A stretch of DNA of 32,480 nucleotides from Anaerolineales bacterium (lineage in GTDB: Bacteria > Chloroflexota > Anaerolineae > Anaerolineales > E44-bin32): the NCBI GenBank assembly GCA_030642885.1, contig DAOWMX010000001.1, positions 1 to 32,480 of the forward strand, given 5' to 3'. The notes below the pieces were generated by a model, which saw only the letters and a list, made by a program, of their open reading frames with translations, did no database searches and had not been told where the DNA came from. The position numbers were made by a program, and so were the translations under genes. This document shows positions 334 to 16,387 of the stretch, in pieces (the stretch's first letter is position 1; every line of letters begins with the position of its first letter).

Positions 334-1794
334 TTAGATCAAACCTACACGCTCGTTGAACTCGACAATCAATCGATCGATCTCTGGTAGAAGCGCCTGG
401 ATCGAGGTCCAATAATCCCGATCGTACCACTGCGCCATGATTTCCTCGTAAGTCCGGCCCTGCTGCTCGACCCATGTGTAGTATTTTAAGTTATGGACAC
501 TGCGTCGATCCGTGTATCGAGTCTCGAGCAAATGATCGGTTTTAAGCCCATACAGGTCATTAGCGAAGTGAGCTGCGGCTTCTATCTTCAGATATTCACC
601 ATATTCCTCATGCATCTCTCTCAATCGGCTCTGATAAAGCTCCATAGAATCAGTAAAAACAGTGAGCACGATGTCGTTTTCGCCCAGTTCATAGTATTTA
701 GCGAACTTAATCGCCATTACGAGGTTGGCGATGCTGGAGAAGCCAAGCAGCTCCAGGTTGGCAATGAAAGCTTCGGGTACCCCTTTTTCAACTAGATACT
801 TATGCCCTGCTGGCTCGTTGAAGAGACGGGCCAGGTTGACAATCACATTGTCGTCGAGCGAAATGATCATATCGGTATTTTTTACATTGTGAATCCAGGG
901 GACATGTTTATCACCGATGCCTTCGATGCGATGTTCTCCAAAACCGTTCTCGAGCAAAGTCGGGCATTGCCAGGCTTCACCGGCAACAACCTTGCCTGAA
1001 GGGAAGATCTGCTTCAGGTATTCCCCACAAGCTAACGTCCCCGCTGACCCTGTGGTCAGCACTACCCCAGCGTAATTATCGTTCGGGCGAAGTTCCTTCT
1101 TAAGCACTTCCTCCATCGCATGTCCGGTGATGTCATAGTGCCAGAGGTAATTCCCAAATTCGTCAAACTGGTTGAAGATGACCACGTCGTCGCGGGTCTC
1201 GCGAAGTTCCCATGTCTTGTCGAAGATCTCTTTCACATTCGACTCGCTGCCAGGCGTGGCAATCACCTCACCCGCTACTTTTTCCAACCATTCGAAGCGC
1301 TCGCGGCTCATACCCTCTGGGAGGATGGCGATTGATTCACAAGCAAGCAGTGATGCATCATAGGCCCCACCACGACAGTAATTCCCCGTCGATGGCCAAA
1401 CTGCCTTGTCCTTAGCGGGATCAAATTGACCCGTGACTAGCCTCGGGACCAGGCATCCAAATGTTGCCCCAACTTTATGCGATCCCGTGGGCATCCATTT
1501 TCCAACCAAGGCGATGATCCGGGCACCCACACCGGTAAGTGAACTCGGAATCTCCAGATAGTTCACCCCTCCGAATCCACCGCCTTTCGGAGTGGGCTCG
1601 TTCTTCCACGTAATACGAAAGAGATTCTCCGGCGTCACATCCCAGAGCCCAAGTGAACTTAGCTTCTCTTTCATTGAATCAGGGATCAAACTCGGGTCTT
1701 TCATCTGCGCAAAAGTCGGGATGATGAAATTTCTCTCCCGCACTCTCTCGATGGTTTTCTCCAGCTTATCTTCATTAATTGTGAGATCGATCAT
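334..1794 (-). CDS. fold-type II (TrpB/CysK-like) PLP-dependent enzyme, 486 aa, substrate unknown
   Basis: Complete ORF with ATG at 1794. PTGSHKVGA (Lys107, codon 1474-1476) matches the PLP-lysine context of TrpB-type enzymes (TGSHK). STGNYCRGG is the Asn loop and TTGSAGT (aa 247-253) is the Gly-rich phosphate loop. A long helical C-terminal extension follows. The start overlaps the upstream GT2 stop by 20 nt. Confidence 0.75.
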   Translation of the reverse strand: MIDLTINEDKLEKTIERVRERNFIIPTFAQMKDPSLIPDSMKEKLSSLGLWDVTPENLFRITWKNEPTPKGGGFGGVNYLEIPSSLTGVGARIIALVGKWMPTGSHKVGATFGCLVPRLVTGQFDPAKDKAVWPSTGNYCRGGAYDASLLACESIAILPEGMSRERFEWLEKVAGEVIATPGSESNVKEIFDKTWELRETRDDVVIFNQFDEFGNYLWHYDITGHAMEEVLKKELRPNDNYAGVVLTTGSAGTLACGEYLKQIFPSGKVVAGEAWQCPTLLENGFGEHRIEGIGDKHVPWIHNVKNTDMIISLDDNVIVNLARLFNEPAGHKYLVEKGVPEAFIANLELLGFSSIANLVMAIKFAKYYELGENDIVLTVFTDSMELYQSRLREMHEEYGEYLKIEAAAHFANDLYGLKTDHLLETRYTDRRSVHNLKYYTWVEQQGRTYEEIMAQWYDRDYWTSIQALLPEIDRLIVEFNERVGLI

Positions 1795-2775: not shown

Positions 2776-4071
2776 TCACCCTCCGCCGTTCTTCTTCGCG
2801 CCGTCATCCAAAGCACTTTCGAGTGCTTTAAGCGTCGGTTCAATCACAAGCGGTTCACCGGCGGCATCCATCGCCCGCGCTACATCTTTCAACCCATTGC
2901 CGGTATTAAGCACAACGACACGGTCTCCCTGCGCAAGGAGGTTCTTCTCAACTGCGGCTAACAACCCGGCATAGGCAGCCGCTCCTGCGGGTTCGGCAAA
3001 CACAGCCGCCTCGCGGCCAAGCTCTGCAATCGCCTCTAAAATAGCGGAATCTGGAACTGCTATGTAAGCTCCACCGGTCTCCGTTGCGGCTCGCAAGGCG
3101 CGTAAACCATCACGCGGCTGGTCCACCGAGATGCTATCAGCCAGCGTATCTGCGCTCACCGGTTGGATCTCCTCCACGCCATCCTGGAAGGCATTATAAA
3201 TCGCAGCCGATCCTTCAGATTGGATCCCATAAAGCCGTGGGATTCTGTCGATCCAACCCAGGTTATGTAAATCTTTAAAGCCTTTATGCAAACCGGAGAT
3301 GATGTTCCCATCCCCAACGGACACGACAACAGCATCCGGCGTGGGCCATCGCTTCTTTCCAGAGCTCTCACCATCGTTTTCAATCGATAATTGTTCACAA
3401 ATTTCGAAGGCGGCGGTTTTCTTGCCCTCGGCTGTGAACGGGTTGAAACCCGTATTTCGGCAATACCAACCGAATCGCTCCGCCGCCTGAATGGTGAGAT
3501 CAAAGGCATCATCATAGGTGCCTTCGACGAGGACCACCCGTGCACCGAATATCAGGAGCTGCGCGATCTTTGCCGGTGGGGCTGTCGCCGGGGCGAGTAT
3601 TACCGCGGGCATCTTTGCCGCTGCCGCCATGCCTGCCAGCGCTGCTCCAGCGTTGCCGGTTGAAGCGGTAACGATTACTTCCACACCGATCTCCTGCCCA
3701 CGGGCAACTGCGACGGCGCTGGCGCGGTCTTTAAAAGAAGCGGTTGGGTTTCGCCCATCATCCTTCAACCAGAGCTTCTCCAGACCTAATTTCCCGGCGA
3801 TCGGCTGCAAATCGAAGAGCGGCGTCCAACCCACTGCCCTCAATGGAGTCCCCAAATGCCCCGGGTCTTGTACGGGGAGGAGCGGTAAATATCGCCAGAT
3901 GGAAGATTCCACTGAACGTCTGATGTCACCGGGTGAGACATGGCGACGAATCCTATCGTAATCAAGGATTACGTCTAAATTCCCTCCGTCATGGGGGCAG
4001 GTATATTGGACATCTTCTGGCCCAAGCTCCTGACCACAGATGGAACAGCGATAGCCTGTAAAGTTCGTCAT
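2776..4071 (-). CDS. threonine-synthase-family PLP enzyme with N-terminal Zn-ribbon (archaeal/thermophile type)
   Basis: The N-terminus YRCSICGQ...YTCPHDGG is a CxxC...CxH ribbon. TASFKDR carries the PLP lysine and ASTGNAGAA is the Asn loop. Length is 431 aa. The ATG at 4071 abuts the stop of the upstream permease gene (4072-4074) with 0 nt between them. Confidence 0.8.
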   Translation of the reverse strand: MTNFTGYRCSICGQELGPEDVQYTCPHDGGNLDVILDYDRIRRHVSPGDIRRSVESSIWRYLPLLPVQDPGHLGTPLRAVGWTPLFDLQPIAGKLGLEKLWLKDDGRNPTASFKDRASAVAVARGQEIGVEVIVTASTGNAGAALAGMAAAAKMPAVILAPATAPPAKIAQLLIFGARVVLVEGTYDDAFDLTIQAAERFGWYCRNTGFNPFTAEGKKTAAFEICEQLSIENDGESSGKKRWPTPDAVVVSVGDGNIISGLHKGFKDLHNLGWIDRIPRLYGIQSEGSAAIYNAFQDGVEEIQPVSADTLADSISVDQPRDGLRALRAATETGGAYIAVPDSAILEAIAELGREAAVFAEPAGAAAYAGLLAAVEKNLLAQGDRVVVLNTGNGLKDVARAMDAAGEPLVIEPTLKALESALDDGAKKNGGG

Positions 4072-5040
4072 TTACAGCCCTCGTTCACCGCGGATATAAG
4101 GCAAGCCCAGCGCTGCAGGTGAGCCCATGCGCTTGCGGATCGCCTCGCGTGAGCCAATCACAAGAACAACGATCGTAAATGCATAGGGCAGCATCTGCAG
4201 GAAAAATCCCCAATAAGGGTTGTAATAGAAGGGATTCCTAAGACCGAATATCTTCATCGGCCCCTGGATATCAAGGATCATTCGACGGAGAGCGCCGAAA
4301 GCGTAAGATCCTCCGGCTGCGCGTATCGGATCCCACTGTGCGAAAATCACCAGACCGATGGCGATCCACCCCTGGCCGGATGTGGTGAGATGGCTGAACC
4401 ACCCCGGAGAAACCGCCAGGCTGATCGTCGCCCCGGCAACCCCGGCGAGCATCCCGCCGACCAGAACATAGAAATAGCGCAAGCGGTTTACATTTATACC
4501 CAAGGCATCCGCGGCTGCCGGATACTCACCAATCGCTCGCAAATGCAGCCCCGGCCGCGTGCGGTTGATGTAATACCAGGCGAGAGGAACCAGCAGATAC
4601 CCCAGATAAACCATCACGCTTTGGTCTTCAAACATGATAGGGCCCAGGAAGGGAATGCTCACCAGACCTGGAATGCTAAACGAGGGTAAAAGGGCAACAG
4701 CCCCAGCCTTGCTTAACCCCTCGCCGAAAACCAGGCTCAGGCCTGTGCCGAGGAAGGTCAGAGCCAGGCCGCTTACAACCTGGTCGGCCTGAAGCTGGAT
4801 CGTGATTATTGCATGGACCTGGCTCAGCAGGCCAGCAGCGAGCATGGCGACAAACACTCCAAGCCAGGGATTGCCGGTCGCTAAAGCTGTTTTATAGGCG
4901 CTCATGGCGCCGATGAGCATCATCCCCTCAAGGCCAAGGTTTAGAATCCCCGATCTTTCGGTGAAGATCTCCCCGATGGTTGCGAATAAAAGAACCGTTC
5001 CGGAGGCGATGCCAGCATGCAGGATGATGATTGGATCCAT
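4072..5040 (-). CDS. ABC transporter permease (BMP/nucleoside-type importer, second permease)
   Basis: 322 aa, polytopic and hydrophobic throughout. It starts 2 nt after the stop of the first permease. This is the typical second membrane subunit of BMP-family uptake systems. Confidence 0.85.
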   Translation of the reverse strand: MDPIIILHAGIASGTVLLFATIGEIFTERSGILNLGLEGMMLIGAMSAYKTALATGNPWLGVFVAMLAAGLLSQVHAIITIQLQADQVVSGLALTFLGTGLSLVFGEGLSKAGAVALLPSFSIPGLVSIPFLGPIMFEDQSVMVYLGYLLVPLAWYYINRTRPGLHLRAIGEYPAAADALGINVNRLRYFYVLVGGMLAGVAGATISLAVSPGWFSHLTTSGQGWIAIGLVIFAQWDPIRAAGGSYAFGALRRMILDIQGPMKIFGLRNPFYYNPYWGFFLQMLPYAFTIVVLVIGSREAIRKRMGSPAALGLPYIRGERGL

Positions 5041-5042
5041 GT

Positions 5043-6176
5043 CTACGCCTCCTGCCCGATTTGCACAAGCCTTATCCGATTGCGGAGTAAGAAATCACTT
5101 CCAATAAGACAGACCAGGATGATCCCCTGGATAAGCATAGGAATACCGGATGGTTGGATCTCCCTGCCAGCCAGGAGCAGCCCACCGAAGAGAATCGAAA
5201 TCGGAACGACCAAAATAGGATTGAGTTTCGCCAGCCAGGCGATGATGATTCCCGTGAAGCCATAGCCGGAGGAGATCGCCCCCTGAAGGCGGTGTACAAC
5301 CCCAGAGATCTCCAACATGCCACCCAACCCCGCCAGTGCACCTGAAAGCATCATCACCAGGATCGTATTCCTGACGATGTTGATCCCCGCGTAGCGCGCG
5401 GCGCGCGGGTTGTCTCCAATCAAGCGAATCTCGTACCCCCACCGGCTGCGGTACATAATCCACCACACCACCCCAGCGGCAATTAAGGCTATGACGAATC
5501 CTAGATGGATGGTAAGCCCTCGAAACATTGGCACCTGAGCTGAGTAATCCGTCAATCGCGGCAGCCAGGCCGTTTTGGGAAACTGACGGCTCATCTGGAA
5601 TCCGCCTTCGGACCATACATCGAAGATGAAATAGTTGTTCCACGCCACAGCGATGTAGTTCATCATTAGCGTCGATATGATTTCATTGACATTGTATTTC
5701 GCTTTCAAATAGCCAGGAATAAATCCCCATAAAGCGCCCGCGAGCATACCCATGATCATCATCGCCGGGATCATCAGCCACGGCGAAGTCTCTGGCGGAA
5801 GAATGGGTGTTAGCACGACTAAACTTGCCCCGAAGGCACCCAAGTAGAATTGACCTTCAGCGCCAATATTCCACAGGCGCATCCTGAAGGCGACAACCGC
5901 TGCCAAACTGACGAGAATGAGCGGAGTAGCTTTTACCAAAGTGTCGGAGAACACGCCGATATCACCAAAAGCAGCTTTGGCCATGAAGGCATAGGCACGG
6001 AAGGGATCTCCACCCACGAGCATTAATACGATCCCTCCAAGAACCAATGCAAAAGTTACAGCGCCAAGCGAAACGATTAATCCCAGCCACCCCGGTTGCT
6101 TCATGCGGGGTTCCATCCGCAAACGGAACCGTGCTCCACCACGGTATTGAGCAAATAATGAAGGCTTGGTCGTCAT
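5043..6176 (-). CDS. ABC transporter permease (BMP/nucleoside-type importer, first permease)
   Basis: 377 aa, polytopic. Its start overlaps the ATPase stop by 4 nt (ATGA). Confidence 0.85.
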   Translation of the reverse strand: MTTKPSLFAQYRGGARFRLRMEPRMKQPGWLGLIVSLGAVTFALVLGGIVLMLVGGDPFRAYAFMAKAAFGDIGVFSDTLVKATPLILVSLAAVVAFRMRLWNIGAEGQFYLGAFGASLVVLTPILPPETSPWLMIPAMMIMGMLAGALWGFIPGYLKAKYNVNEIISTLMMNYIAVAWNNYFIFDVWSEGGFQMSRQFPKTAWLPRLTDYSAQVPMFRGLTIHLGFVIALIAAGVVWWIMYRSRWGYEIRLIGDNPRAARYAGINIVRNTILVMMLSGALAGLGGMLEISGVVHRLQGAISSGYGFTGIIIAWLAKLNPILVVPISILFGGLLLAGREIQPSGIPMLIQGIILVCLIGSDFLLRNRIRLVQIGQEA

Positions 6177-7744
6177 TGACTCACCTTCCTTGCCTCGACC
6201 AGATCCTCCTGGCGAGTCCCGGTCATCATTAGACCCAATGTTTCAGGGTCAGCTTCCCTCACCTCACCCATGATTTCTCCCTCATAAATCACGTAAACAC
6301 GATCCGAGAGCGAGATGAGTTCTTCCAATTCCTCCGAGATAAGAAGGATCGCAGCGCCATTCTCGCGCTGCTGGAGCAGCAAGCGTTGAACGGATTCTAT
6401 CGCCCCAACGTCCAACCCGCGCGTTGGCTGCATGGCAATCATCAATTTCGGCTCACAGGAGATCTCGCGCGCAAGAATCAAACGTTGTAGATTTCCTCCC
6501 GAGAGCAAACGTGCAGGGGTTTCCACTGTCGGCACCATGATGTCATAGGCTTCACGCAGCGTTTCTGCTTGAGTGGTAGCAGAGAGGCTGTCAATGGACC
6601 ACCCTTTCGAGATAGGCGGTTTCCGATACCCTTTCATGATCAGGTTGTCAGTGATGCTGAGGTTAGGGGCAGTACCGACATGGGTCCGATCCTCAGGGAT
6701 GTGTGAAACGCCCGCATCGATTATCTGTCTTACATGGCTTGACCTGCGCTGCCCTGAGATACTTCCATCAATGAGCACTTGCCCATGCACAATCACTTTT
6801 CCTTCTGTGATCGGGCGAAGACCGGTAATAGCTTCAGCCAACTCCGCTTGCCCATTTCCAGCCACACCGGCCAAGCCGACGATCTCACCAGCCGCAACGT
6901 GTAGAGATAAGCCGCGTAAAGCCTGAATGCCTTTATTGTTCAAAGCCTTGAGCCCTTCCACAGCCAGAACAGTGTCCCCAGGAGTATGCTCGACCTTATT
7001 CAATTGGAAGAGTACGTCGCGACCTACCATCTCGCGCGCCAGGTCCTGCTTCGTTATCTCTTTCGTAAGCAAACCCTCTGCGCTGAGCTTCCCCTTGCGC
7101 AAGACTGTAATCCGATCTGCAATCGCCATGACTTCGTCGAGCTTATGGCTGATGAAGATGATAGATTTCCCCTCGGCAATCATGGATCGAAGTGTAGTGA
7201 ACAGTTCTTGAATCTCCTGCGGGGCCAAGACCGCTGTTGGCTCGTCCATGATGAGCACTTTCGCTCCACGATAGAGCATCTTTAGTATCTCCACACGCTG
7301 CTGCTCACCGACGGACAATTGCCAGATTCTTGCTCGTGGGTCGACCTGTAAACCATACTGTTCCCCGAGTTCGGTGATGATTTGATCATAATGAGATAAA
7401 TTCATATTAAAGCGCGGTTCATCGAGGCCCAGGAGGATATTTTCCGTCACGGTTTGAGTGGGCACGAGCATAAAGTGCTGGTGGACCATGCCAATCCCGT
7501 AGTTGATGGCATCTCGCGGGGATCGCAGATCAACAACCTCACCATCAACCCGGATCGTACCTTCATCGGGCCTATATAATCCCGTGAGGATATTCACCAG
7601 GGTGCTCTTGCCTGCGCCGTTTTCGCCCAACAAGGCGTGGATCTCACCAGACCGCAAGGTGAAATCAACCTGGTCATTCGCCAAGACACCGGGAAACTGT
7701 TTAGAAATCCCTCTTAACTCAACAACATTGAGGTGGTCATCCAT
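6173..7744 (-). CDS. ABC transporter ATP-binding protein with two fused ATPase domains
   Basis: Walker A GENGAGKST and GVAGNGQ, signature LSVGEQQR and LSGGNLQR, Walker B LIMDEPT. The track starts at ATG 7777. I prefer ATG 7744 (MDDHLNVVELRGISKQF) because GGAG lies 7 nt upstream, while 7777 sits in the loop of the 7764-7792 hairpin. Confidence 0.85.
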   Translation of the reverse strand: MDDHLNVVELRGISKQFPGVLANDQVDFTLRSGEIHALLGENGAGKSTLVNILTGLYRPDEGTIRVDGEVVDLRSPRDAINYGIGMVHQHFMLVPTQTVTENILLGLDEPRFNMNLSHYDQIITELGEQYGLQVDPRARIWQLSVGEQQRVEILKMLYRGAKVLIMDEPTAVLAPQEIQELFTTLRSMIAEGKSIIFISHKLDEVMAIADRITVLRKGKLSAEGLLTKEITKQDLAREMVGRDVLFQLNKVEHTPGDTVLAVEGLKALNNKGIQALRGLSLHVAAGEIVGLAGVAGNGQAELAEAITGLRPITEGKVIVHGQVLIDGSISGQRRSSHVRQIIDAGVSHIPEDRTHVGTAPNLSITDNLIMKGYRKPPISKGWSIDSLSATTQAETLREAYDIMVPTVETPARLLSGGNLQRLILAREISCEPKLMIAMQPTRGLDVGAIESVQRLLLQQRENGAAILLISEELEELISLSDRVYVIYEGEIMGEVREADPETLGLMMTGTRQEDLVEARKVSQ

Positions 7745-7763
7745 ACTCAGCTCCGAAGATGAC

Positions 7764-7792
7764 GGGTCGACGCCCATATCGGACGTCGACCC
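7764..7792 (-). promoter_or_regulatory. intercistronic stem-loop between the binding-protein gene and the ATPase gene
   Basis: GGGTCGACG (7764-7772) and CGTCGACCC (7784-7792) form a perfect 9-bp GC-rich inverted repeat with an 11-nt loop. On the coding (minus) strand it is preceded by an A-run and is not followed by a U-run. Confidence 0.5.
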
Positions 7793-7814
7793 TTTTTCTG
7801 TTTATTTGTGTGGA

Positions 7815-9017
7815 CTACTCCGGCAATTCCGCAGTAATGCCCTCAGCCCACCACTTCATGCAGTACTCGCAGCCTAACCCAAACTCGGGGAAGGCATCCA
7901 GGTCAACTTGCTCAAGCGCTTTACCTTCGGGAACAATCAGATTGCCTTGATTGTCATAGATCGGGCCTGAGAACACATCAAAGCGGGTGAAATCTCCCAC
8001 CAGGGTGTCGGCCACCAGGTCACGAACAGCCTGGATCACATCTTCCGGAAGCTCAGCAACACCGGGCTGCAACTCCTCACCCTCCATGAAGCCGTACAGG
8101 CCGAGTGCTCCGGTATCACCATCAAAGTAATCCCAACCGGGGGTATAGGTCCCCGCGATCACGCCTTCGGCGATCTCCGCGTAAACCGGTCCCCAAACCC
8201 AGTAGGGCGCGGTCAGGCAGGCGTCGATTTTGCAGGAGCCGTACCAGTCATAGGTGACGCCCCATTTGCCCTTTTCCTGCGCTACATCAGCAACTGCTGG
8301 GGTGTCAGCACCCGTGAACACTACCTGTGCACCGGCATCGAACAACGAGGCTGCGGCCTCTTTCTCGATGATGGGATCATGCCAGGTGTTGATCCAGCGC
8401 ACGTCAAGCGTGCACTCCGGGCAGGTTTCCCTCATCCCCAACGCAATAGCGTTGCCGAGGCGGATCTCCTCCGGGATCGGGAAAGTCGCCATGTACCCCA
8501 GCTTCGGGTTTCCATCCATTTGTGCCCGTGCGCCAGCAAGCATCCCTGCCATGTACTTCATGTTTTCCATGGCACCGAACAGGTTGCCGAAGTTGGTCAT
8601 GTTGGATTTTATGCCCGAGATGTGGATATACGTGACATCCGGGAATTCTTCGGCGAGGACTTCCATGGGGTCCATGTAGCCAAAGGATGTGCCAAAGATC
8701 AGATCAAAGCCTTTCCGCGAGAGGCTGCGGAAAATCTGCTCCGAGTCAGCTCCCTCGGGTACGTTCTCGATATAGGCTATGTGGACATCCGGAACATTCT
8801 CTGCGACATATTCCAGGCCTTCGAAGTGCGCCTGGGACCAGCCACCATCGTCGTGAGGACCAATCAGGACCATGGCAATATTGAACTTGCCCTCTTCCAC
8901 CGCGGGGATCTCGAAACCTCCCACGACTTCCGGTGCCTCTTCCCCACCGCAGGCTGTAAGTGCCAGAGCCAACAGGGTAAGGAGAACAGCTAGGCGTAAC
9001 GCCATACTTCGTGACAT
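7815..9017 (-). CDS. BMP-family ABC substrate-binding lipoprotein (purine nucleoside-binding type)
   Basis: 400 aa. Signal peptide with lipobox LALALTAC-GG. The mature part has the BMP/PnrA-like pattern (NIAMVLIGPHDDGGWSQAHFEGL...). AGAGGAG lies 7 nt upstream of the ATG. Confidence 0.85.
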   Translation of the reverse strand: MSRSMALRLAVLLTLLALALTACGGEEAPEVVGGFEIPAVEEGKFNIAMVLIGPHDDGGWSQAHFEGLEYVAENVPDVHIAYIENVPEGADSEQIFRSLSRKGFDLIFGTSFGYMDPMEVLAEEFPDVTYIHISGIKSNMTNFGNLFGAMENMKYMAGMLAGARAQMDGNPKLGYMATFPIPEEIRLGNAIALGMRETCPECTLDVRWINTWHDPIIEKEAAASLFDAGAQVVFTGADTPAVADVAQEKGKWGVTYDWYGSCKIDACLTAPYWVWGPVYAEIAEGVIAGTYTPGWDYFDGDTGALGLYGFMEGEELQPGVAELPEDVIQAVRDLVADTLVGDFTRFDVFSGPIYDNQGNLIVPEGKALEQVDLDAFPEFGLGCEYCMKWWAEGITAELPE

Positions 9018-9121: not shown

Positions 9122-10081
9122 TTATGAAATGACTATTCGAGTGCCCGTTTTCCCTTCTAGAGCAAGCTCGATATTCACAGGATCTGTGATCAGGGCTTCC
9201 TTACCACCACGTTCTAGAAAGCCAACAATGGCCCGAATCTTGGGTTCCATGCTTCCCTTGCCGAATTGGCCATCGGCGAGATGCTTTTTCGCCTCAGCCA
9301 AAGTCATTCGATCAATCCATTGCTGATCCGGTTTATTGAAATTCAGCGCGACTTTCTCCACTGCTGTTGAGATTAAAAGCAGATCCGCCTGGATGCTATT
9401 TGCCAGTAATGCCGAGGCGAAGTCCTTATCGATCACCGCCTCAATCCCGGTGAGTTCGCCTTTCTCATTTTCAACTACGGGAATGCCCCCGCCGCCCACA
9501 CCGATGACCACAAAACCATCTCCGATCAACGACTGGATCGCATCTTGCTCGATGATGCGGACAGGTAACGGCGACGGGACAACGCGCCGCCAACCTCGTC
9601 CTGCATCCTCCACGACCGTCCAACCTTCTTTCTTACTATGTTCCGATGCGGTCCCCTCATCCATGAAAGAACCAATCGGCTTCGATGGATTCTGGAAGGC
9701 AGGATCGTTTGGATCGACTAAGACCTGCGTAACAACTGTTGCCGATTTCTTGTCGAGCCCACGCAGTAGGAATTCGTTGTAAAGCGCTCGCTGGAACATA
9801 TAGCCGATGGCACCTTGCGTGTCAGCTCCACATGTATCCAAGGGTACGGGGTGAAGCTCATGCAGCGCAAGTTCAACCCGGCGGAGGATGAAGCCCACCT
9901 GCGGTCCATTGCCATGCGTGATTACGACGTCCCAACCCTCTTCGATCATGCCGGCGATATGGGTCATAGATTCACCCGCTGCCGCATATTGATCCGCAAC
10001 TGTTCTGTGTTGCTTATCTTTGATTAGAGAGTTGCCGCCAACAGCGACTACGGCAATTTTTCTTCCACTTGATTTGCTCAT
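9122..10081 (-). CDS. arcC: carbamate kinase
   Basis: 319 aa. KIAVVAVGGNSL...VITHGNGPQVG...IGVGGGGIPV are the canonical carbamate kinase motifs. It starts 15 nt after the stop of the upstream transcarbamylase gene. Confidence 0.9.
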   Translation of the reverse strand: MSKSSGRKIAVVAVGGNSLIKDKQHRTVADQYAAAGESMTHIAGMIEEGWDVVITHGNGPQVGFILRRVELALHELHPVPLDTCGADTQGAIGYMFQRALYNEFLLRGLDKKSATVVTQVLVDPNDPAFQNPSKPIGSFMDEGTASEHSKKEGWTVVEDAGRGWRRVVPSPLPVRIIEQDAIQSLIGDGFVVIGVGGGGIPVVENEKGELTGIEAVIDKDFASALLANSIQADLLLISTAVEKVALNFNKPDQQWIDRMTLAEAKKHLADGQFGKGSMEPKIRAIVGFLERGGKEALITDPVNIELALEGKTGTRIVIS

Positions 10082-10096
10082 TCACAAACCTCCAAA

Positions 10097-11077
10097 CTAG
10101 CGCATCGTTAATGCCATGACGGCTTTTTGTGCATGCAGACGATTCTCTGCCTCATCGAACACGACGCTATGCGGTCCGTCGATAACGCCATCCGTGACCT
10201 CGATGTTACGATCGGCGGGAAGGGGATGCATGTAAATTGAATCGGCTTTGGCCAGCCCCATTTTCTTCTCATCCGTAATCCAGTCTTTATACTTATCCTG
10301 GATTTTCTTCCCTTCCTCGGGATCTGTCGTCGTCAATAAAGGTCCCCAGGACTTAGCGTAGACGATGTCAGCATCTTTTACCGCCGCATTCATATCATCG
10401 ACGACTTCAAACCCTGTGCCGAATTTCTTCGCCTGCGCCTTCGCTTGATCCATGATCTCCGGCATCAACTTGAATTCTGGAGGATGAGCCAAAACAACAT
10501 CGAGACCAAAGCGGGGCATCTGTAAGATTAGCGATTGCGGCACTGAGATAGGTTTCAAGTAGGAAGATGCATAAGCCCAGGAGACCACCATCTTCTTTCT
10601 GCGCAGATCCCTGCCCTTCTTCTCGATGATCGTCATGAGATCGGCCAGGATCTGGAATGGATGGTAGAACTCACACTGCATGTTGAAGACAGGCTCGCGC
10701 GAGGCTTCCGCGACCAGGTTTAGGTACCGATTTCCAATCCCCCAATCGACGTGCCGGATTGCGATTCCATCGAAATAACGACCGAAGATCTCCCCCATCT
10801 CCTTCTCGGTATCTCCATGAGAAATCTGGGTTGTCCGCGATTCGATAAAAGCGGCATGCCCTCCCAGCTGAGCCATCCCCGCCTCAAACGAACCGCGTGT
10901 GCGAGTGCTAGAGAAGAAGAACAACATCGCCAGAACCTTATCTCGTAAGTAAGGATGGGGTTCTCCAAGCGCCCGCTTGCGCTTAAGATCAAAAGCTACT
11001 TCCAGAACGGTTTCGACCTCCTCACGGGTAAAATCGAGGTCACCGATGAGGTCTCTTCCACGTAAATCTGTTTGCAT
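10097..11077 (-). CDS. ATCase/OTCase-superfamily transcarbamylase of the ArgF'/YgeW-like (acyl-ornithine, knotted) branch, substrate unknown
   Basis: 326 aa. The carbamoyl-phosphate motif is FSSTRTRGSFE. HPFQILADL replaces HPTQ, and MHPLPADRNIEV replaces HCLP. IVYAKSWG stands where OTCases have DxxxSMG. From memory, the segments PVFNMQCEFYHPFQ, MVVSWAYASSYLKPISVPQS and VTDGVIDGPHSVVFDEAENR parallel Bacteroides/Xanthomonas ArgF'. Confidence 0.75.
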   Translation of the reverse strand: MQTDLRGRDLIGDLDFTREEVETVLEVAFDLKRKRALGEPHPYLRDKVLAMLFFFSSTRTRGSFEAGMAQLGGHAAFIESRTTQISHGDTEKEMGEIFGRYFDGIAIRHVDWGIGNRYLNLVAEASREPVFNMQCEFYHPFQILADLMTIIEKKGRDLRRKKMVVSWAYASSYLKPISVPQSLILQMPRFGLDVVLAHPPEFKLMPEIMDQAKAQAKKFGTGFEVVDDMNAAVKDADIVYAKSWGPLLTTTDPEEGKKIQDKYKDWITDEKKMGLAKADSIYMHPLPADRNIEVTDGVIDGPHSVVFDEAENRLHAQKAVMALTMR

Positions 11078-11264
11078 GGACGCTTCATCTCCTATCTTAT
11101 GGTTATGGGTTCCTTTTTTTCGATAGTTCAGATCGGCGTTGAGCTCTTTGGTTCATCGAGTCTCCTGCACCTATCCAGGTTGTTTGAGCTCACCTTTCAA
11201 ACTCCACCTGCACTAACTATTCGACTCTATTGTTCGTTCCTCTTGCTTCCGATAATCGACGTAC

Positions 11265-12218
11265 TCACTCCATAGCGCCGAGGACGGACGCCAACAGCCC
11301 CATGCGCATGACCACACCATTGAACGCTTCCAGCCAGTATCGAGACCAACGTGTGGCGTCAACATCGGGAGGAATCTCATCCATCCGCGGCAGGGAGTGC
11401 AATAGGATCGCGTCCGACTTTGCTTTACCGGACAGCAGTTCACGCGTGATCTTGTAATTCGCGGGTGTCAAGCCGACGTCCCCATCCCGTTCGTCACGGG
11501 ATTTGGTGTAATCCGGCTGGACGACCGGCTCTACCAAGATTACATCCGCTTCACTAATCGCTTGCTCCACATGTTCTGCCTCAGCGAAATCGAGACTGAG
11601 TAGTTCAAGCTCTTCTTTAAACTCATCCGTGAGAGACATCTCAGGCGGGGATACGAACGTGATCGGACAATCAAATTGGGTCAGGCCATAGGCTAAGGAG
11701 TGCATTGTTCGCATGCGCATATCGCCAACAGCCAGCCAGCGAAGCCCATCTAGACGGCCTTTCTCCTGATGTACAGTGTACAGGTCGGTGAGTATCTGAG
11801 TCGGGTGTTCCCCCCAGCCATCACCGCCGTTGATAATCGGAATAGAAGCCCATTTCGCGGCCTCATGCGGCGCGCCCTGCTCGAAATGCCGCATCACGAT
11901 CACATCACCGTAGAACTCCAGCATCTTCACTGTGTCCTTAATCGACTCCTGATAGTAATCTCCCGCCCGAGTCATCTTTGCATCGGCAAAGCCTGTCACT
12001 TGCCCGCCCAGGCGTATCATCGCTGCTTCGTGAGCAAGACGGGTTCGAGTGCTTGGTTGGTAGAAAGCTGTAACCAGCGTTTTCTCTGATAGCAAATCTG
12101 TATTGCGTCGATCGCGCGCAAATGGCGCCAAACGGTCACACACTTCGAAAATTCGGTAATACTCTTCCCTCTCAAATCCTTTTAGGGAAAGTATGTCTCG
12201 TCCAGAAAAACTGCGCAT
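11265..12218 (-). CDS. aspartate-carbamoyltransferase-like (PyrB paralogue) transcarbamylase, non-canonical second-substrate site
   Basis: QPSTRTR, VMRH, GEHPTQ, GDMRMRTMHS and HSLPRMDEI match ATCase catalytic-chain motifs. The (T/L)RxQxER aspartate-binding segment is replaced by VEPVVQPDYTKSRDERDGD. The track start 12290 gives a basic, non-homologous extension. I use ATG 12218 (MRSFSGRDILSLKGF) because GGAGGAG lies 8 nt upstream. Confidence 0.75.
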   Translation of the reverse strand: MRSFSGRDILSLKGFEREEYYRIFEVCDRLAPFARDRRNTDLLSEKTLVTAFYQPSTRTRLAHEAAMIRLGGQVTGFADAKMTRAGDYYQESIKDTVKMLEFYGDVIVMRHFEQGAPHEAAKWASIPIINGGDGWGEHPTQILTDLYTVHQEKGRLDGLRWLAVGDMRMRTMHSLAYGLTQFDCPITFVSPPEMSLTDEFKEELELLSLDFAEAEHVEQAISEADVILVEPVVQPDYTKSRDERDGDVGLTPANYKITRELLSGKAKSDAILLHSLPRMDEIPPDVDATRWSRYWLEAFNGVVMRMGLLASVLGAME

Positions 12219-12292
12219 GAATCTACTCCTCCATTTCCTTTTTTTGTACTCGTCGTTTTGTCTGTCCCTAATTTTTCCCCCTTGCCTCACGC

Positions 12293-13036
12293 TTATGGCA
12301 ACCGACGGTTAATATGAAATCGAAAGGTGCCTGGCAAGAAATAACTATACGTGTGGTCGATCACTTCTCCATCTTTTGAATAAAGCTGGGCTTCGAAGAA
12401 CAGCAAGGCATCCCCGCGCTGAATTTTCAGATGACGGGCCACCTCCGGGGAAGCCGATACTGCGGTGATATCTGTGGGAGATTGCCAGATTTCAGGTTCA
12501 TCTCGCTGAAGGAGTACTTCCAGGACCGAACCCCGGAATTCACCTGCTTTGATATCCACAGGCAGATATTTTTCCGGGAGAATGTCAATAAGGAAGGCAA
12601 CAGGTCTCCCTTCTGTCAAGATCACCCTCGAGATTTCGATCAATGGAAGTTCATTTCCCCATCTGAATCGCTGCAGTTCTTCCTCTGTCGCTGTCCGCTC
12701 CCTGATTTCCAGATCCCCCGTCTCGACCTTAAGGCCGATCCGATCTGCGAGCCGCTCGATACTCTCCAGGGTTTCGAGCCCGGTGTCAATCACATGAGGT
12801 AGTTGAGTAACGTACGTGCCCACACCCTGACGACGTACGATCCTCCCTCGACGCTCGAAGATTCTCATCGCCTCGCGCAGGGTCGCGCGTGAAACCCCAA
12901 GGCTGCGGGCTAATTTTGGTTCAGACGGAAGATACGTCCCTGGTTCGACGCTCTCAAGGATCTCAGAAAGAGTCTCAGCTGTACTTTCATAAAGAGGGCG
13001 GCGCTTTGTCTCTTCTCGTATTTCCATTCGACTCAT
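12293..13036 (-). CDS. GntR-family transcriptional regulator, HutC subfamily (winged HTH plus UTRA-like effector domain)
   Basis: The N-terminal YLPSEPKLARSLGVSRATLREAMRIFERRGRIVRRQGVGTYV is a GntR wHTH. The roughly 160-aa C-terminal domain fits UTRA size. The track ORF (start 13204) would overlap the adenine deaminase gene by 122 nt with a Cys/Trp/Leu-rich extension. I use ATG 13036; ATG 13027 is an alternative. Confidence 0.8.
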   Translation of the reverse strand: MSRMEIREETKRRPLYESTAETLSEILESVEPGTYLPSEPKLARSLGVSRATLREAMRIFERRGRIVRRQGVGTYVTQLPHVIDTGLETLESIERLADRIGLKVETGDLEIRERTATEEELQRFRWGNELPLIEISRVILTEGRPVAFLIDILPEKYLPVDIKAGEFRGSVLEVLLQRDEPEIWQSPTDITAVSASPEVARHLKIQRGDALLFFEAQLYSKDGEVIDHTYSYFLPGTFRFHINRRLP

Positions 13037-13082
13037 TTCTTCACTCGCGTTGTCAGCTTCATGGGACCGATATTTTAAGAGC

Positions 13083-14879
13083 CTAATCCCCGCCTTCCAC
13101 CACAGGAATAACTTCAAAACGGTTAACGTCAACGAGACCTTTATCGGAGATTCGCAGATCGGGAATAACAACGAGTGCCAGAAGACTGAGCTGCATATTG
13201 GCATTGTTCAAGTTGCAGCCACATTCTTTAAAAGCGTCGAGAACGCGTTCAGCCTTCTCAGCGACGATCTCTGCCCGTTCTTCCGACATCAAGCCCGCGA
13301 TCGGCAGCTCTACCAAGGCGACAGTTTTCCCCTCGCGGATAACGATCTGTCCACCGCCTACCTCCGCGAGCCGATTGGCGGCCAGAGCCATATCCGTCTC
13401 ATTTGTCCCGACGACGATCATATGGTGAGAATCATGGGCTACGGTTGAGGCGATGGCGCAGGGGCGATCGAAACCAAACCCGTGGACAAACCCTACTTGA
13501 ACTTCGCCCGTCGCCTGGTGACGCTCAACAAGCGCAACCTTGGCGAGATCCTGTTTGATATCAACTGCGATCGTTCCATCTACCGCCTTCATTTCCATCT
13601 TAAGATGTTGCGTCGGAGCCTGGTTCTCAATGACTCCGATGACGTTGACAGTAAAAACACCATCTTTTGAGACATCGACAGAAAAATCTTCTGCGCGGAG
13701 TTCTTTTCCAAGGCGGACGGAAGACTTCACCTCAGGCGGATATACAAAATCGGGGATATCCACCAGAAGTTCTCCATCCTCGGCAATGAGCCTGCCACGT
13801 GCAAAGACCATCTCTGCAGCAAAGGATTCCAGCTCGCCTACGAGCAGTAGGTCTGCATACCGCCCGGGAGCGATCTGTCCGATATCGCCGGCGAGGCCAA
13901 AATGCTCCGCGGTGTTGAGCGTTGCCATCTGAATAGCGGTGATCGGCTCCAGACCCTGCTCGATTGCATGCCGCACAACTCGATCCATGTGCCCATCATG
14001 CACTAATGTCCCGGAGTGGCTGTCATCGGTTACCAGGAGGAAATGGCGAGGGTCGAGACCCTCTTCCGTGACAGCTCGCACCTGACTCGCCACGTCATGC
14101 CACGCTGACCCGAGCCTCATCATCACCTTCATGCCCTGGCGGGCACGCGCGAGCGCATCCTCCAGACGGGTGCCCTCGTGGTCATCTTCCGGTCCCCCGG
14201 CAACGTAACCGTGGAACGGCTTACCCAGGTCAAGCGAGGCATAGTGCCCTCCGATGACCTTTCCTGCAGCGCGGGTTTCCGCCATCTCCAGGTGCATTTT
14301 CTCGTCACTGTTAAAGACACCCGGGAAGTTCATCATTTCGCCTAACCCAATAATCCCCGGCCAGGACAGCGCCTCGGCAACTTCCTCAGGGCCAATCGCG
14401 GCGCCGGGCGTCTCCAAGCCCGGAGCGGATGGCACACAAGATGGAACCTGTACCCACACATGAATAGGCTGAATAGCCGCCTCATCTGCCATGAGACGCA
14501 CACCATCAAGCCCGAAGACATTTGCGATCTCATGTGGGTCGATGAACATCCCTGTCGTGCCGCGCGGGGCCACCGCACGTACAAACTCTCCAACCGTGAT
14601 CATGCCCGACTCAACATGCATATGGCCATCCAACAAGCCGGGGACAATATGGCGGCCTTCTGCCTCGATAACTCGAGTGTCAGGCCCTATGATGTGACTC
14701 GCGTCCTGGCCTACAAAGGCAATGCGTTCCCCAAAAATCGCAACGGAGATTCCTGGGAGGATTTCCCCGGACTGAACGCAAACCCATCGACCGCCGCGTA
14801 TGACGACATCCGCCGGTTTTCTGCCCATGGCGACATCGACGAGTGATCGGCTTAATTCGCTCAAACTTTTAGTATCCAT
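13083..14879 (-). CDS. ade: adenine deaminase
   Basis: About 598 aa. VIRGGRWV...ILPGISVAI, the HMHVESG metal motif, FIDPHEIANV and the large C-terminal domain are typical of Ade/AdeC. I prefer ATG 14879 (MDTKSL) because AGAGAGGAAG lies immediately upstream. GTG 14894 from the track has no SD sequence. Confidence 0.85.
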   Translation of the reverse strand: MDTKSLSELSRSLVDVAMGRKPADVVIRGGRWVCVQSGEILPGISVAIFGERIAFVGQDASHIIGPDTRVIEAEGRHIVPGLLDGHMHVESGMITVGEFVRAVAPRGTTGMFIDPHEIANVFGLDGVRLMADEAAIQPIHVWVQVPSCVPSAPGLETPGAAIGPEEVAEALSWPGIIGLGEMMNFPGVFNSDEKMHLEMAETRAAGKVIGGHYASLDLGKPFHGYVAGGPEDDHEGTRLEDALARARQGMKVMMRLGSAWHDVASQVRAVTEEGLDPRHFLLVTDDSHSGTLVHDGHMDRVVRHAIEQGLEPITAIQMATLNTAEHFGLAGDIGQIAPGRYADLLLVGELESFAAEMVFARGRLIAEDGELLVDIPDFVYPPEVKSSVRLGKELRAEDFSVDVSKDGVFTVNVIGVIENQAPTQHLKMEMKAVDGTIAVDIKQDLAKVALVERHQATGEVQVGFVHGFGFDRPCAIASTVAHDSHHMIVVGTNETDMALAANRLAEVGGGQIVIREGKTVALVELPIAGLMSEERAEIVAEKAERVLDAFKECGCNLNNANMQLSLLALVVIPDLRISDKGLVDVNRFEVIPVVEGGD

Positions 14880-14918
14880 CTTCCTCTCTTTCACAATGTA
14901 GGGTATGGAACCAATAGC

Positions 14919-16298
14919 TCAATCCCTATTCGCTAGATTTAATGCCACGCGATTATGGGTCTCTATTAGCGATGGAAGTTCGACGGGCTGCAGCTCCCCC
15001 TCTGAAACTACCGCCCGGCCATGGACATAGTTGTAATCGACATGCACAGGATTACAGAAGAACATCGCCGCTAATGGATCGTGAAGCGCACCCGAAAAGT
15101 CAACACGGTCTAAGTTCATAGCGATGAAATCCGCGCACATACCTTCCTGGAGGGCTCCGATATCATCCCTCCCTAAAACCTCCGCCCCTCCAATGGTAGC
15201 CAGAGCGAGAACCTGACGGGCAGTCAGCAATGATTCCTCGCCGTCGATCTCCGGAGCTACAGCAGCTCCAACGCGCGAGAGCAGCATTGCCTGGCGTGCT
15301 TCTGCGATCAGATGAGAGCTATCATTGCTTGCCGAACCATCAACGCCGATACTAACTTTCACACCTCGTGATAAAAACCGTCGAATAGGCGCGATTCCTG
15401 AGGCGAGGCGCATGTTGGATGATGGACAATGCGCTACACCCATACCACCATCCGCCATCCGCTCGACCTCTTCGGGGTTGATATGAACAGCATGCGCAAA
15501 CCAAACATCCTCCCCGGCCCAATCCAGCATCTCAACGTATTCCAGGGGACGATGCCCAAACTTGTTTACACAAAACGATTCTTCATCTAGCGTTTCCGCA
15601 AGATGCGTATGGAGATGAACACCGCTAGACCTGGCAAGAGCTGCACTCTCCCGCATGAGATCCGGCGTAACTGAGAACGGCGAGCAAGGGGCAACGACGA
15701 TCCTGACCATCGCTCCCGGGTTGGGATCATGATAGGTCTCGATCACCCGCTGTGTATCCTTGAGAATAAACTCCTCTGCCTCCACAACATCATCGGGGGG
15801 CAGCCCGCCCTTGCTTTCCCCCAGGCTCATGGAGCCTCTACTGGCATGCAGGCGCATACCCATGCCTCGAGCCGCTTCGATCTGATCATCGAGTCGACAG
15901 TCATTTGGGAATATATAATGGTGGTCAGATGTCGTCGTACAGCCAGATAATGCCAGTTCAGCTAACCCTAACTGGGTGGATACACGGATAGCTTCCGGTG
16001 TAAGCCCGGCCCAAATAGGATATAAGGTTTTTAACCAACTGAAGAGATCGGCATCCTGCGCTTGAGGAATTACGCGCGTGAGGGTTTGGTACAGATGATG
16101 ATGTGTGTTTACCAGACCGGGGAGAACAATATGTCCATCGAGGTCGAGGATTTCATCGGCTTTCTTGGGAAGTTCGTCAGTGGGACCAACCTGCTTGATC
16201 CAACCGTTTTCGGCGTAAAAACCTCCATTTGGGATCTCACGCCGTTGACCATCCATCGTGACAAGAAGCATGGCATTACGGATCAATAACGTCGCCAT
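14919..16298 (-). CDS. amidohydrolase of the 8-oxoguanine/guanine deaminase (SsnA/AtzB-like) group
   Basis: LPGLVNTHHHLYQTLTR, HLHTHLAE, FAHAVH and VDGSASND are the metal and catalytic motifs of the COG0402-type deaminases. I use ATG 16298 (MATLLIRNAMLL) because GGGAGGG lies 4-5 nt upstream. The track start 16352 falls inside the promoter. Confidence 0.8.
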   Translation of the reverse strand: MATLLIRNAMLLVTMDGQRREIPNGGFYAENGWIKQVGPTDELPKKADEILDLDGHIVLPGLVNTHHHLYQTLTRVIPQAQDADLFSWLKTLYPIWAGLTPEAIRVSTQLGLAELALSGCTTTSDHHYIFPNDCRLDDQIEAARGMGMRLHASRGSMSLGESKGGLPPDDVVEAEEFILKDTQRVIETYHDPNPGAMVRIVVAPCSPFSVTPDLMRESAALARSSGVHLHTHLAETLDEESFCVNKFGHRPLEYVEMLDWAGEDVWFAHAVHINPEEVERMADGGMGVAHCPSSNMRLASGIAPIRRFLSRGVKVSIGVDGSASNDSSHLIAEARQAMLLSRVGAAVAPEIDGEESLLTARQVLALATIGGAEVLGRDDIGALQEGMCADFIAMNLDRVDFSGALHDPLAAMFFCNPVHVDYNYVHGRAVVSEGELQPVELPSLIETHNRVALNLANRD

Positions 16299-16312
16299 CA
16301 GCCCTCCCTGGA

Positions 16313-16387
16313 TTGACAACGCGAGTCTAGCATCTCCATCTAAATGCGTCAATTGTCAGACAACATAGACAGGGCGGATAATTGTCA
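16313..16387. promoter_or_regulatory. cluster of TTGTCA/TGACAA operator-like half-sites overlapping the promoter
   Basis: The perfect palindrome TTGTCAGACAA (16353-16363) abuts the -35. TTGACAA (16313-16319) is at the predicted transcription start and TTGTCA (16382-16387) lies upstream. AATTGTCA occurs twice (16351-16358 and 16380-16387). These are plausible sites for the GntR/HutC regulator encoded in the same train. Confidence 0.4.
16324..16352 (-). promoter_or_regulatory. sigma70-type promoter for the amidohydrolase-led gene train
   Basis: Minus strand: TTGACG (16352-16347), a 17-nt spacer, then TAGACT (16329-16324). This lies about 25 nt upstream of ATG 16298 and just downstream of the folD terminator. 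Confidence 0.55.

Follow-up and report, generated by a model that had tools for sequence, protein, structure and literature searches.

Organization of the gene cluster

We analyzed a 32,480-nucleotide stretch of DNA from an Anaerolineales bacterium (contig DAOWMX010000001.1, positions 1 to 32,480; hereafter "the window"), in which a gene on the minus strand at 11265..12218 encodes a 317-residue relative of aspartate carbamoyltransferase (ATCase). Its product, here called the ATC-like protein, is a carbamoyltransferase of the Nocardioides type of "pseudo-ATCase" (see below). Both Pfam transcarbamylase domains, OTCace_N and OTCace, are recognized in it with E-values of 8.7e-42 and 4.7e-21. The open reading frame begins with an ATG preceded, about 9 nt upstream, by a GGAGGA Shine-Dalgarno sequence, and the 120 closest database relatives share its start and length, apart from one protein of 319 residues. 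Judged by its sequence, the ATC-like protein is most likely a member of the ATCase lineage that is still competent in carbamoyl transfer but has a second-substrate pocket rebuilt for a compound other than aspartate.

Every gene from 334 to 17331 lies on the minus strand. In order of transcription, these encode FolD, an 8-oxoguanine deaminase-type amidohydrolase, an adenine deaminase, a GntR/UTRA regulator, the ATC-like protein, a second transcarbamylase, a carbamate kinase, a BMP/PnrA-type ABC transporter, a threonine-synthase-like (ThrC-like) enzyme, a GT2 glycosyltransferase, and PALP2, a second enzyme of the pyridoxal 5′-phosphate (PLP)-dependent fold type II. The regulator (12293..13036), which is of the HutC type and carries the Pfam domains GntR and UTRA, is encoded immediately upstream of the ATC-like gene; it probably begins with the ATG at 13036, the mechanically called reading frame reaching 13204 and the orthologues being about 248 residues long. 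The carbamate kinase (9122..10081) scores 368.9 bits with TIGR00746 (arcC; cutoff 358.25) and is 51% identical to E. coli YqeA. Together, the ATC-like gene, a second transcarbamylase gene, and a carbamate kinase gene form a classic ATP-yielding catabolic layout.

The second transcarbamylase, which we refer to as the partner (10097..11077; 326 residues), likewise contains both Pfam transcarbamylase domains and remains under every NCBIfam cutoff. Compared with the ornithine carbamoyltransferase (OTCase) of P. furiosus, it lacks the DGNN and DxxxSMG motifs and reads HPLP where the OTCase has HCLP. It is 74% identical to E8MZ16 from Anaerolinea thermophila, 64% to A1SH60 from Nocardioides, and 35% to E. 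coli YgeW. In the tree of Barba et al., E8MZ16 and A1SH60 are sisters (99% support) within the YgeW/YTC clade (PMC4016543), and we assign the partner to a short form of this clade. The sub-branch to which it belongs is set apart by a long branch; its members have about 326 residues, versus 396 in the YgeW of the E. coli type, and read HPLP and HPFQ.

Fold and active site of the ATC-like protein

The AlphaFold2 model of the ATC-like protein has a predicted template-modeling score (pTM) of 0.85, and its top Foldseek matches are all ATCases, with TM scores of 0.80-0.86. The nearest solved structure by sequence is P. abyssi ATCase (1ml4; phmmer, E = 1e-65), and the identity to archaeal and plant ATCases is about 38%. 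With TIGR00670, the curated PyrB equivalog model, the protein scores 236.2 bits, just below the cutoff of 236.95; with NF002032, it scores 212.2 against a cutoff of 263, and it falls far under the cutoffs of the remaining NCBI models for ATCases and OTCases.

Individual residues were compared in an alignment with E. coli PyrB (NC_000913.3) and 30 diverse representatives, whereas conservation was assessed over 161 orthologues, namely the window, 80 loci from Chloroflexota (L001-L080), and 80 from other phyla (L249-L328). In E. coli numbering, S52, T53, R54, T55, R56, R105, H134, Q137, R167, T168, H265, L267, P268, and R269 are all kept, and the STRTR, HPTQ, and HSLP segments are present and invariant. 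The carbamoyl-phosphate site is identical to that of PyrB, R167 included. The altered positions are S80 (to R), K84 (to Y), T228 (to E), R229 (to P), Q231 (to V), E233 (to P), R234 (to D), P266 (to S), and E50, which is a glutamine in the FYQPSTRTR segment. Six genuine ATCases in the same alignment, in contrast, all keep S80, K84, and the T-R-x-Q-x-E-R sequence.

These changes affect the residues by which ATCases hold aspartate. The RxQxER motif occurs in all known ATCases, with R229 and Q231 anchoring the β-carboxylate of the substrate, whereas the α-carboxylate is positioned by R167 and K84 (PMC4581275). In place of this motif the ATC-like protein reads E-P-V-V-Q-P-D, both in the alignment with E. 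coli PyrB and in the phmmer alignment to 1ml4. In the 80s loop, S80 and K84 are replaced by an invariant R and Y, and the loop is longer by one residue; the HP[LG]P motif of PyrB is an invariant HSLP. Over the 161 orthologues, 107 of the 317 residues are invariant, among them Q50, R80, Y84, E228, P229, and S266 (E. coli numbering). Because the altered positions are included in this set, the changes cannot be put down to chance or decay. The 240s loop has the consensus E-P-V-V-Q-(P/A)-D-Y-T-x-S-R, and the family-wide alignment places a five-residue insertion (VQPDY) after V230, such that R241 of the window protein pairs with E. coli R234. In window numbering, all 161 orthologues have Q234 in this loop, and 158 of them have R241, the arginine of KSR; the loop has therefore been remodeled, not merely degraded. 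The ATC-like protein would thus be a clear example of an ATCase scaffold re-targeted via its 80s and 240s loops around an unchanged carbamoyl-phosphate site.

The original prediction, made from the letters of the window alone, had described the fold and the carbamoyl-phosphate site as seemingly intact and the motif for the aspartate β-carboxylate as lost. All motifs it quoted (STRTR, MRH, HPTQ, GDMRMRTMHS, HSLPRMDEI, and VEPVVQPDYTKSRDERDGD) are found in the translation. The Pfam domains, the predicted structure, and its Foldseek matches agree on the fold, and every residue of the carbamoyl-phosphate site is retained relative to E. coli PyrB and invariant in the family. The loss of the β-carboxylate motif holds for R229 and Q231, which are gone, but the loop still contains a conserved Gln and Arg in Q234 and R241. 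The absence of nearby pyr genes was likewise noted correctly, and extends from the window to the 160 orthologous loci, but the adjacent second transcarbamylase and carbamate kinase had been overlooked.

In view of the conserved Gln and Arg, one may ask whether the protein is a genuine, divergent ATCase in which Q234 and R241 hold the aspartate β-carboxylate. It does miss the PyrB equivalog cutoff by less than 1 bit, and it keeps R167. However, the replacements of K84 by Y, S80 by R, E50 by Q, and P266 by S are invariant, and the context in the 160 loci, devoid of pyr genes, is catabolic. Moreover, a canonical pyrB exists in Anaerolineae: that of one Anaerolineae bacterium keeps TRIQRER and is part of an operon pyrB-pyrF-pyrE-pyrD-pyrK-pyrC. 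Authentic ATCases also coexist with pseudo-ATCases in the same organisms (PMC4016543). When contigs were probed with the Anaerolineae PyrB, and then with an alignment of six PyrB sequences from Chloroflexota (mostly Anaerolineae/Anaerolineales), the top-80 lists shared no assembly with the pseudo-ATCase loci, which leaves some room for a divergent ATCase, the second probe having relied on overly general peptide patterns and drawn its sample from many phyla. Taken together, we consider it highly improbable that the enzyme is an ATCase, and members of its family almost certainly do not make carbamoyl-aspartate.

The same conservation bears on a possible role as a non-catalytic or regulatory subunit that would assemble with the YgeW-clade partner. 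The two genes are nearly always adjacent, both transcarbamylases are more conserved than their neighbors, and inactive structural paralogues occur in related metabolism, an inactive dihydroorotase serving as a structural subunit in Pseudomonas ATCase. A pseudo-enzyme would, however, not be expected to keep S52, T53, R54, T55, R105, H134, Q137, R167, L267, and R269 all invariant, which makes such a role very unlikely.

Relation to the pseudo-ATCases

In 2013, Barba et al. used the term pseudo-ATCases for paralogues annotated as ATCases in which STRT and HPTQ are conserved while HPLP and RxQ are altered (PMC4016543). Their supplement distinguishes three groups: the ureidoglycine carbamoyltransferases (UGTCases), with H[ST]LP and G-x-S/C; a marine group with HPLA; and a lone protein from Nocardioides JS614, A1SH59, with HSLP and with EPVVQ in the place of T-R-V-Q-K. 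The gene for A1SH59 adjoins a ygeW homologue, xdhABC, and hyuA, and no function was assigned to it in 2013 (PMC4016543). In Table 1 of that paper, the numbering of the subgroups conflicts with the text, which the tree labels and alignment (Additional files 5-6) settle, and the entry "VXP" for the HSLP group is P-V-V in the paper's own alignment. The pseudo-ATCase family itself is therefore not new, having been flagged in 2013, and the idea of a substrate other than aspartate is already contained in PMC4016543. In the literature searched, we found no later paper on pseudo-ATCases.

The ATC-like protein clearly belongs with A1SH59, to which it is 65% identical over 308 residues (E = 7e-147). Both contain FYQPSTRTR, AKMTRAG-FYQES, GDMRM-RTMHS, EPVVQ, and HSLPRMDE. 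The ATC-like protein thus shows the pattern of the Nocardioides type, with STRT and HPTQ kept, HSLP in the place of HPLP, and RxQ lost. As in Nocardioides, a transcarbamylase of the YTC clade is encoded next to it, A1SH60 being the counterpart of the partner in the window, and genes for Xdh and HyuA are found near it in orthologous loci. The copy in the window differs in that it adjoins purine deaminases and an ABC transporter; neither xdh nor hyuA is present in the window. Also in contrast to A1SH59, which was described from a single organism, the family is encountered here in more than 1,000 contigs.

More distant ATCase-like proteins that also lack RxQ, such as those encoded at L247:8001-8954 (Cytobacillus firmus) and P0128, are 40-47% identical to the ATC-like protein and have other loop sequences. 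Their genes occur with those for ATP-grasp ligases, aminotransferases, and an MFS exporter in one kind of cluster, and with SARP/LuxR regulators and an IPMS-like enzyme in another. These proteins are probably anabolic transcarbamylases of secondary metabolism; given these biosynthetic-looking surroundings, "pseudo-ATCase" therefore does not denote a single function. We considered the distant relatives P0128 and P0154 as a guide to the substrate of the ATC-like family and set them aside as uninformative, since their contexts are unrelated and biosynthetic-looking.

Distribution and conserved gene neighborhood

More than 566 genome contigs code for proteins 82-99% identical to the ATC-like protein, the closest being from metagenome-assembled genomes of Anaerolineales and other Chloroflexota. 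Counted at the level of species, over 1,000 genome contigs encode the family; they come from Chloroflexota, Actinomycetota, Opitutales, Phycisphaerae, Armatimonadota, and NC10. All named database copies that we sampled are labeled "aspartate carbamoyltransferase", which amounts to a systematic error in metabolic reconstructions of Chloroflexota and Actinomycetota. Across Chloroflexota, Actinomycetota, Verrucomicrobiota, Planctomycetota, Armatimonadota, and NC10, the ATC-like protein shows at least 64% identity, which is unusually tight and suggests that the whole cluster has spread horizontally and is under strong constraint.

Gene neighborhoods were compared in two sets of loci. The Chloroflexota set (n = 81) consists of 80 fetched loci and the window. 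The second set (n = 80) holds the best 80 of 569 relatives from a genome scan seeded with A1SH59, to which they are 74-93% identical; their hosts are mostly Actinomycetota, including the cultured Fodinibacter luteus, together with Opitutales, Phycisphaerae, Armatimonadota, and NC10. The ATC-like gene is followed by that of a YgeW-clade partner in 72 of the 81 Chloroflexota loci and 70 of the 80 loci of the second set, and a carbamate kinase is encoded in 61 and 53, respectively. The gene for an 8-oxoguanine-deaminase-like protein is equally common in both sets (40/81 and 38/80), whereas the ThrC-like enzyme is frequent in Chloroflexota (40/81, versus 2/80) and PALP2 in the second set (55/80, versus 22/81). 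In the Chloroflexota set, a GntR gene lies upstream of the ATC-like gene in 55 loci, an adenine deaminase is encoded in 38, and a BMP transporter follows the carbamate kinase in about 30. Both transcarbamylases are roughly 80-90% identical among the Chloroflexota loci, while their neighbors are 45-70% identical. The clostridial fermentation of xanthine, brought to mind by the upstream FolD gene, was discarded as an explanation, FolD being a housekeeping gene that occurs in only 17 of the 81 loci.

Probable link to the reductive urate pathway

The context of the orthologues points to the recently described reductive route of urate breakdown. In this pathway, urate is reduced to 2,8-dioxopurine, which is in turn reduced by YgfK; the two rings are then opened, first by SsnA and next by HyuA, to yield 2,3-diureidopropionate; one of its ureido groups is released by YgeW in the form of carbamoyl phosphate, which YqeA turns into ATP; YgeY hydrolyses the second ureido group; and YgeX converts diaminopropionate to pyruvate (10.1101/2025.04.24.650524, PMC12507026). 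In a Chloroflexota variant, an F420-dependent reductase replaces YgfK (PMC12507026), and the combination of F420 reductase and SsnA seen in the orthologous loci corresponds to this variant.

Of the 80 loci in the second set, 72 encode at least one of the hallmarks SsnA, HyuA, Xdh, YgfK, and F420 reductase, as do 22 of the 81 from Chloroflexota. Xdh-type subunits are found in 61/80 and 5/81, and HyuA in 30/80 and 5/81, respectively; the second set has the F420 reductase in 57 loci and SsnA in 53. YgeY and YgeX, however, are each encoded in only two loci of the second set, and YgeY in 13 of the 81 Chloroflexota loci. The assignments of these neighbors are supported by curated models: SsnA scores 522.8 in L052 and 511 in L020 (cutoff 444), YgfK in L039 scores 950.8 (cutoff 835), and among the neighbors in Chloroflexota loci are a YgeY with 460.7 (TIGR03526; cutoff 321.5) and a D-hydantoinase with 514 (TIGR02033; cutoff 393). 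Full urate clusters are seen at the orthologous loci L052, L039, and L020, L052 having the order Xdh - XdhB - ThrC-like - ... - F420 reductase (LLM) - YgeY - ATC-like - YgeW-like - carbamate kinase - SsnA - Xdh - Xdh - HyuA. Of such a cluster, the window itself contains only the transcarbamylases, the carbamate kinase, and PLP enzymes, along with purine deaminases. The original prediction had proposed a second substrate other than aspartate, or phosphorolysis of another N-carbamoyl compound; the partner, the carbamate kinase, and the urate-gene context lend support to this proposal at the level of gene content.

The E. coli system offers the closest parallel. There too, a transcarbamylase, YgeW, is combined with a carbamate kinase, YqeA, to which the kinase of the window is 51% identical as stated above, and the partner belongs to the YgeW clade. 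The E. coli system relies on a single transcarbamylase together with the M20 hydrolase YgeY, whereas the module described here pairs two transcarbamylases and mostly lacks YgeY. No counterpart of the ATC-like enzyme exists in the E. coli cluster, and unrelated PLP enzymes of fold type II are candidates for the place of YgeX in the module.

A second parallel is the UGTCase of Rubrobacter xylanophilus, Rxyl_2847, which is likewise derived from an ATCase, has lost RxQ, and contains H[ST]LP. It is encoded beside a carbamate kinase within a cluster for purine degradation and phosphorolyses the diureido acid allantoate. By this precedent, the ATC-like enzyme would split allantoate into ureidoglycine and carbamoyl phosphate, with the partner acting on, for example, oxalurate. 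Rxyl_2847 is the sole pseudo-ATCase to have been assayed, and it does cleave allantoate in this way; 2,3-diureidopropionate has been described as structurally reminiscent of allantoate, and the window contains purine deaminases leading to urate but no genes of the reductive pathway. The ATC-like protein, however, shows an identity of only about 33% with D8GTE4, a protein of the UGTCase group, as compared with 65% with A1SH59, and although its HSLP fits the UGTCase pattern, it has P-V-V instead of G-x-S/C at the RxQ position. The UGTCase cluster further contains allantoinase and uricase, lacks a second transcarbamylase, and serves the oxidative rather than the reductive degradation of urate. 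In the 160 neighborhoods, no allantoinase, uricase, or HIU hydrolase recurs, whereas SsnA, HyuA, F420 reductase, and Xdh do. In addition, many of the hosts are Anaerolineae, which are mostly anaerobes, and the oxidative route requires O2. Allantoate and oxalurate were our first working idea for the substrates; they were demoted once SsnA, HyuA, F420 reductase, and YgfK had been found and no allantoinase or uricase, and we now regard UGTCase-like activity as quite unlikely.

The window also prompts a different kind of explanation, since the neighbors of its module are a transporter, deaminases, and two PLP enzymes, and not enzymes of ring opening. The substrate could be some other ureido compound, such as an N-carbamoyl amino acid or a nucleobase-derived ureide imported by the BMP transporter, or the enzyme could work anabolically and carbamoylate a diamino acid made by the ThrC-like and CysK-like PLP enzymes. 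The distant RxQ-less proteins in biosynthetic-looking clusters would be in line with the latter, as would the L-2,3-diaminopropionate transcarbamylase (DPTCase) of zwittermicin and viomycin biosynthesis, which interconverts diaminopropionate and ureido-alanine (PMC4581275). Those distant relatives are, however, merely 40-47% identical, with differing loops, and DPTCase, which we could set against the ATC-like enzyme by description only, catalyzes the reverse of one of the reactions proposed below, is anabolic and of the OTCase lineage, works without a carbamate kinase, and acts at the β-amino group of the L-isomer. In the window, catabolism is suggested by the carbamate kinase, the GntR/UTRA regulator, and the deaminases. 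Above all, orthologues at 64-93% identity, with 107 invariant residues in common, are found within complete urate clusters. Because close orthologues are embedded in such clusters, a different substrate in the host of the window is unlikely.

Proposed function

The gene at 11265..12218 likely encodes a catabolic transcarbamylase that acts on a substrate other than aspartate and is tied to purine or urate breakdown. Its substrate is probably a ureido-diaminopropionate. Our best hypothesis, to which we assign a probability of roughly 0.6, is that the ATC-like enzyme is a second catabolic carbamoyltransferase for 2,3-diureidopropionate in the reductive urate pathway. The 8-oxoguanine deaminase of the window, whose product would be urate, and the adenine deaminase are in line with this placement. 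What the data show directly are the residue changes and their conservation, the intact fold, the gene neighborhoods, and the kinship with A1SH59; the direction of the reaction, the assignment to this pathway, the replacement of YgeY, and the regiochemistry set out below are what we infer for this enzyme.

In the catabolic direction, the ATC-like enzyme would convert a ureido compound and phosphate to an amine and carbamoyl phosphate, and the carbamate kinase would then turn carbamoyl phosphate into ATP, CO2, and NH3. The pairing with a YgeW-clade partner and the usual absence of YgeY suggest that both ureido groups of 2,3-diureidopropionate leave as carbamoyl phosphate, the two transcarbamylases splitting one each. 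The ATC-like enzyme would then occupy the step that E. coli gives to the hydrolase YgeY, and up to two ATP could be gained per urate instead of one. That such a tandem of YgeW-clade and ATCase-derived enzymes constitutes a widespread variant of the pathway, doubling the ATP obtained with YgeW and YgeY, is a more tentative claim, for which we put the odds at slightly less than even.

As to the regiochemistry, the ATC-like enzyme may take the 2-ureido (N-α) group, either of 2,3-diureidopropionate or of 3-amino-2-ureidopropanoate. This choice is made by analogy, because ATCases bind an N-α-carbamoyl amino acid via its α-carboxylate and R167 is kept, and because relatives on the OTCase/YgeW side act on side-chain nitrogens; we hold it with some doubt, the odds being somewhat against it. 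In such a complex, the pocket for the β-substituent, cationic in ATCases through R229, Q231, and K84, would have been converted, and E228, Q234, D236, Y237, R241, R80, and Y84 could bind a neutral ureido or a cationic amino side chain in place of the contacts to the β-carboxylate. In the host, the substrate might come from enzymes encoded outside the window or enter through the neighboring BMP-type ABC transporter.

Several points weigh against a 2,3-diureidopropionate carbamoyltransferase. The conserved Q234 and R241 could, judging from the alignment, bind a carboxylate. The displaced segment might thus provide an Arg/Gln pair, a possibility already raised by the original prediction; the loop with these two residues is modeled with a predicted local distance difference test score (pLDDT) below 50, and the same applies to all three substrate loops (residues 80-85, 237-248, and 276-281). 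The only assayed pseudo-ATCase, Rxyl_2847, is a UGTCase from outside the Nocardioides-type subgroup. None of SsnA, HyuA, Xdh, YgfK, F420 reductase, and YgeY is encoded within the window, and because these upper-pathway genes are missing there, the urate assignment in the host rests on orthology (64-74% identity). YgeY occurs together with both transcarbamylases in 13 of the 81 Chloroflexota loci, so that its replacement is not strict. Furthermore, the two papers from 2025 disagree on the regiochemistry of YgeW and YgeY, which a commentary lists as an open question, and it is therefore uncertain which ureido group would be left for the ATC-like enzyme. Finally, the pathway intermediates are proposed to have the R (D) configuration whereas ATCases act on L-aspartate, so that the analogy with carbamoyl-aspartate may fail in detail.

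If 2,3-diureidopropionate is nevertheless the substrate, the ATC-like protein would represent a new specificity, that of an N-α-carbamoyl-2,3-diaminopropionate (or 2,3-diureidopropionate) carbamoyltransferase, and an ancestral division of labor between the two transcarbamylases, one for the α-nitrogen and one for the ω-nitrogen, would help to settle the disputed order of ureido cleavage. Passage of both ureido groups via carbamoyl phosphate would double the ATP obtained at this stage of anaerobic purine fermentation, a gain of relevance to organisms that abound in sediments, digesters, and soils. The pseudo-ATCase subgroup has been an orphan since 2013, and 2,3-diureidopropionate, described in 2025, provides it with a concrete candidate substrate that can be made enzymatically. 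Its placement in the reductive urate pathway, the pairing with a YgeW-clade enzyme in place of YgeY, and the wide and tightly conserved distribution appear to be unreported in the literature searched.

Other genes of the window

Upstream of the regulator, the minus-strand series starts with the gene for FolD, which scores above the curated cutoff of NF010785. The amidohydrolase encoded at 14919..16352 is assigned to the 8-oxoguanine deaminase type by NF006055 (672.9; cutoff 532), and its product would be urate; the adenine deaminase at 13083..14894 scores 508.9 with TIGR01178 (cutoff 472.5). Downstream of the carbamate kinase, the BMP/PnrA-type transporter (4072..9017; Pfam Bmp, ABC_tran, and BPD_transp_2) comprises a substrate-binding protein (7815-9017), an ATPase (6173-7777), and two permeases (5043-6176 and 4072-5040).

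The ThrC-like enzyme (2776..4071) is a PALP-domain protein of fold type II whose nearest solved structures are threonine synthases; it scores 193 with TIGR00260 (cutoff 167) and 282 with PRK08197 (cutoff 303). It is a candidate for handling the de-carbamoylated product. PALP2 (334..1794; 486 residues) also has a PALP domain, with weak matches to CysK/CBS structures, and may be a non-orthologous stand-in for the diaminopropionate ammonia-lyase YgeX. Neither is an orthologue of E. coli YgeX: the ThrC-like enzyme is merely 25% identical to it, and PALP2 gives a negligible match (30% over 46 residues, E = 1e-4), so that both can be analogues at most. Between the two genes lies that of the GT2 glycosyltransferase (1775-2779; Pfam Glycos_transf_2), which resembles PgfS/ArnC below the curated cutoffs. 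A GT2 gene occupies this spot in 16 of the 81 Chloroflexota loci and is an odd companion in an otherwise catabolic cluster.

An Rfam scan of the window and three further loci returned no xanthine, urate, or other riboswitch, the sole match being a tRNA in L256, and a scan for promoters and terminators performed no better than on shuffled sequence. The 187-nt spacer between the two transcarbamylase genes (11078-11264) contains no open reading frame and no Rfam match. At the corresponding position between the ATC-like and YgeW-like genes, about eight loci (L021, at 2597-2980, and L030, L041, L046, L055, L066, L071, and L073) encode a small four-helix-bundle protein (TIGR02436, 115 bits). Two further genes of the window are unrelated to the ATC-like module: one at 17543-19675 (minus strand) encodes a Ser/Thr protein kinase fused to β-propeller repeats of the PD40/Tricorn type, and one at 27250-28092 (plus strand) encodes a protein resembling (R)-S-adenosyl-L-methionine hydrolase, with a score below the cutoff.

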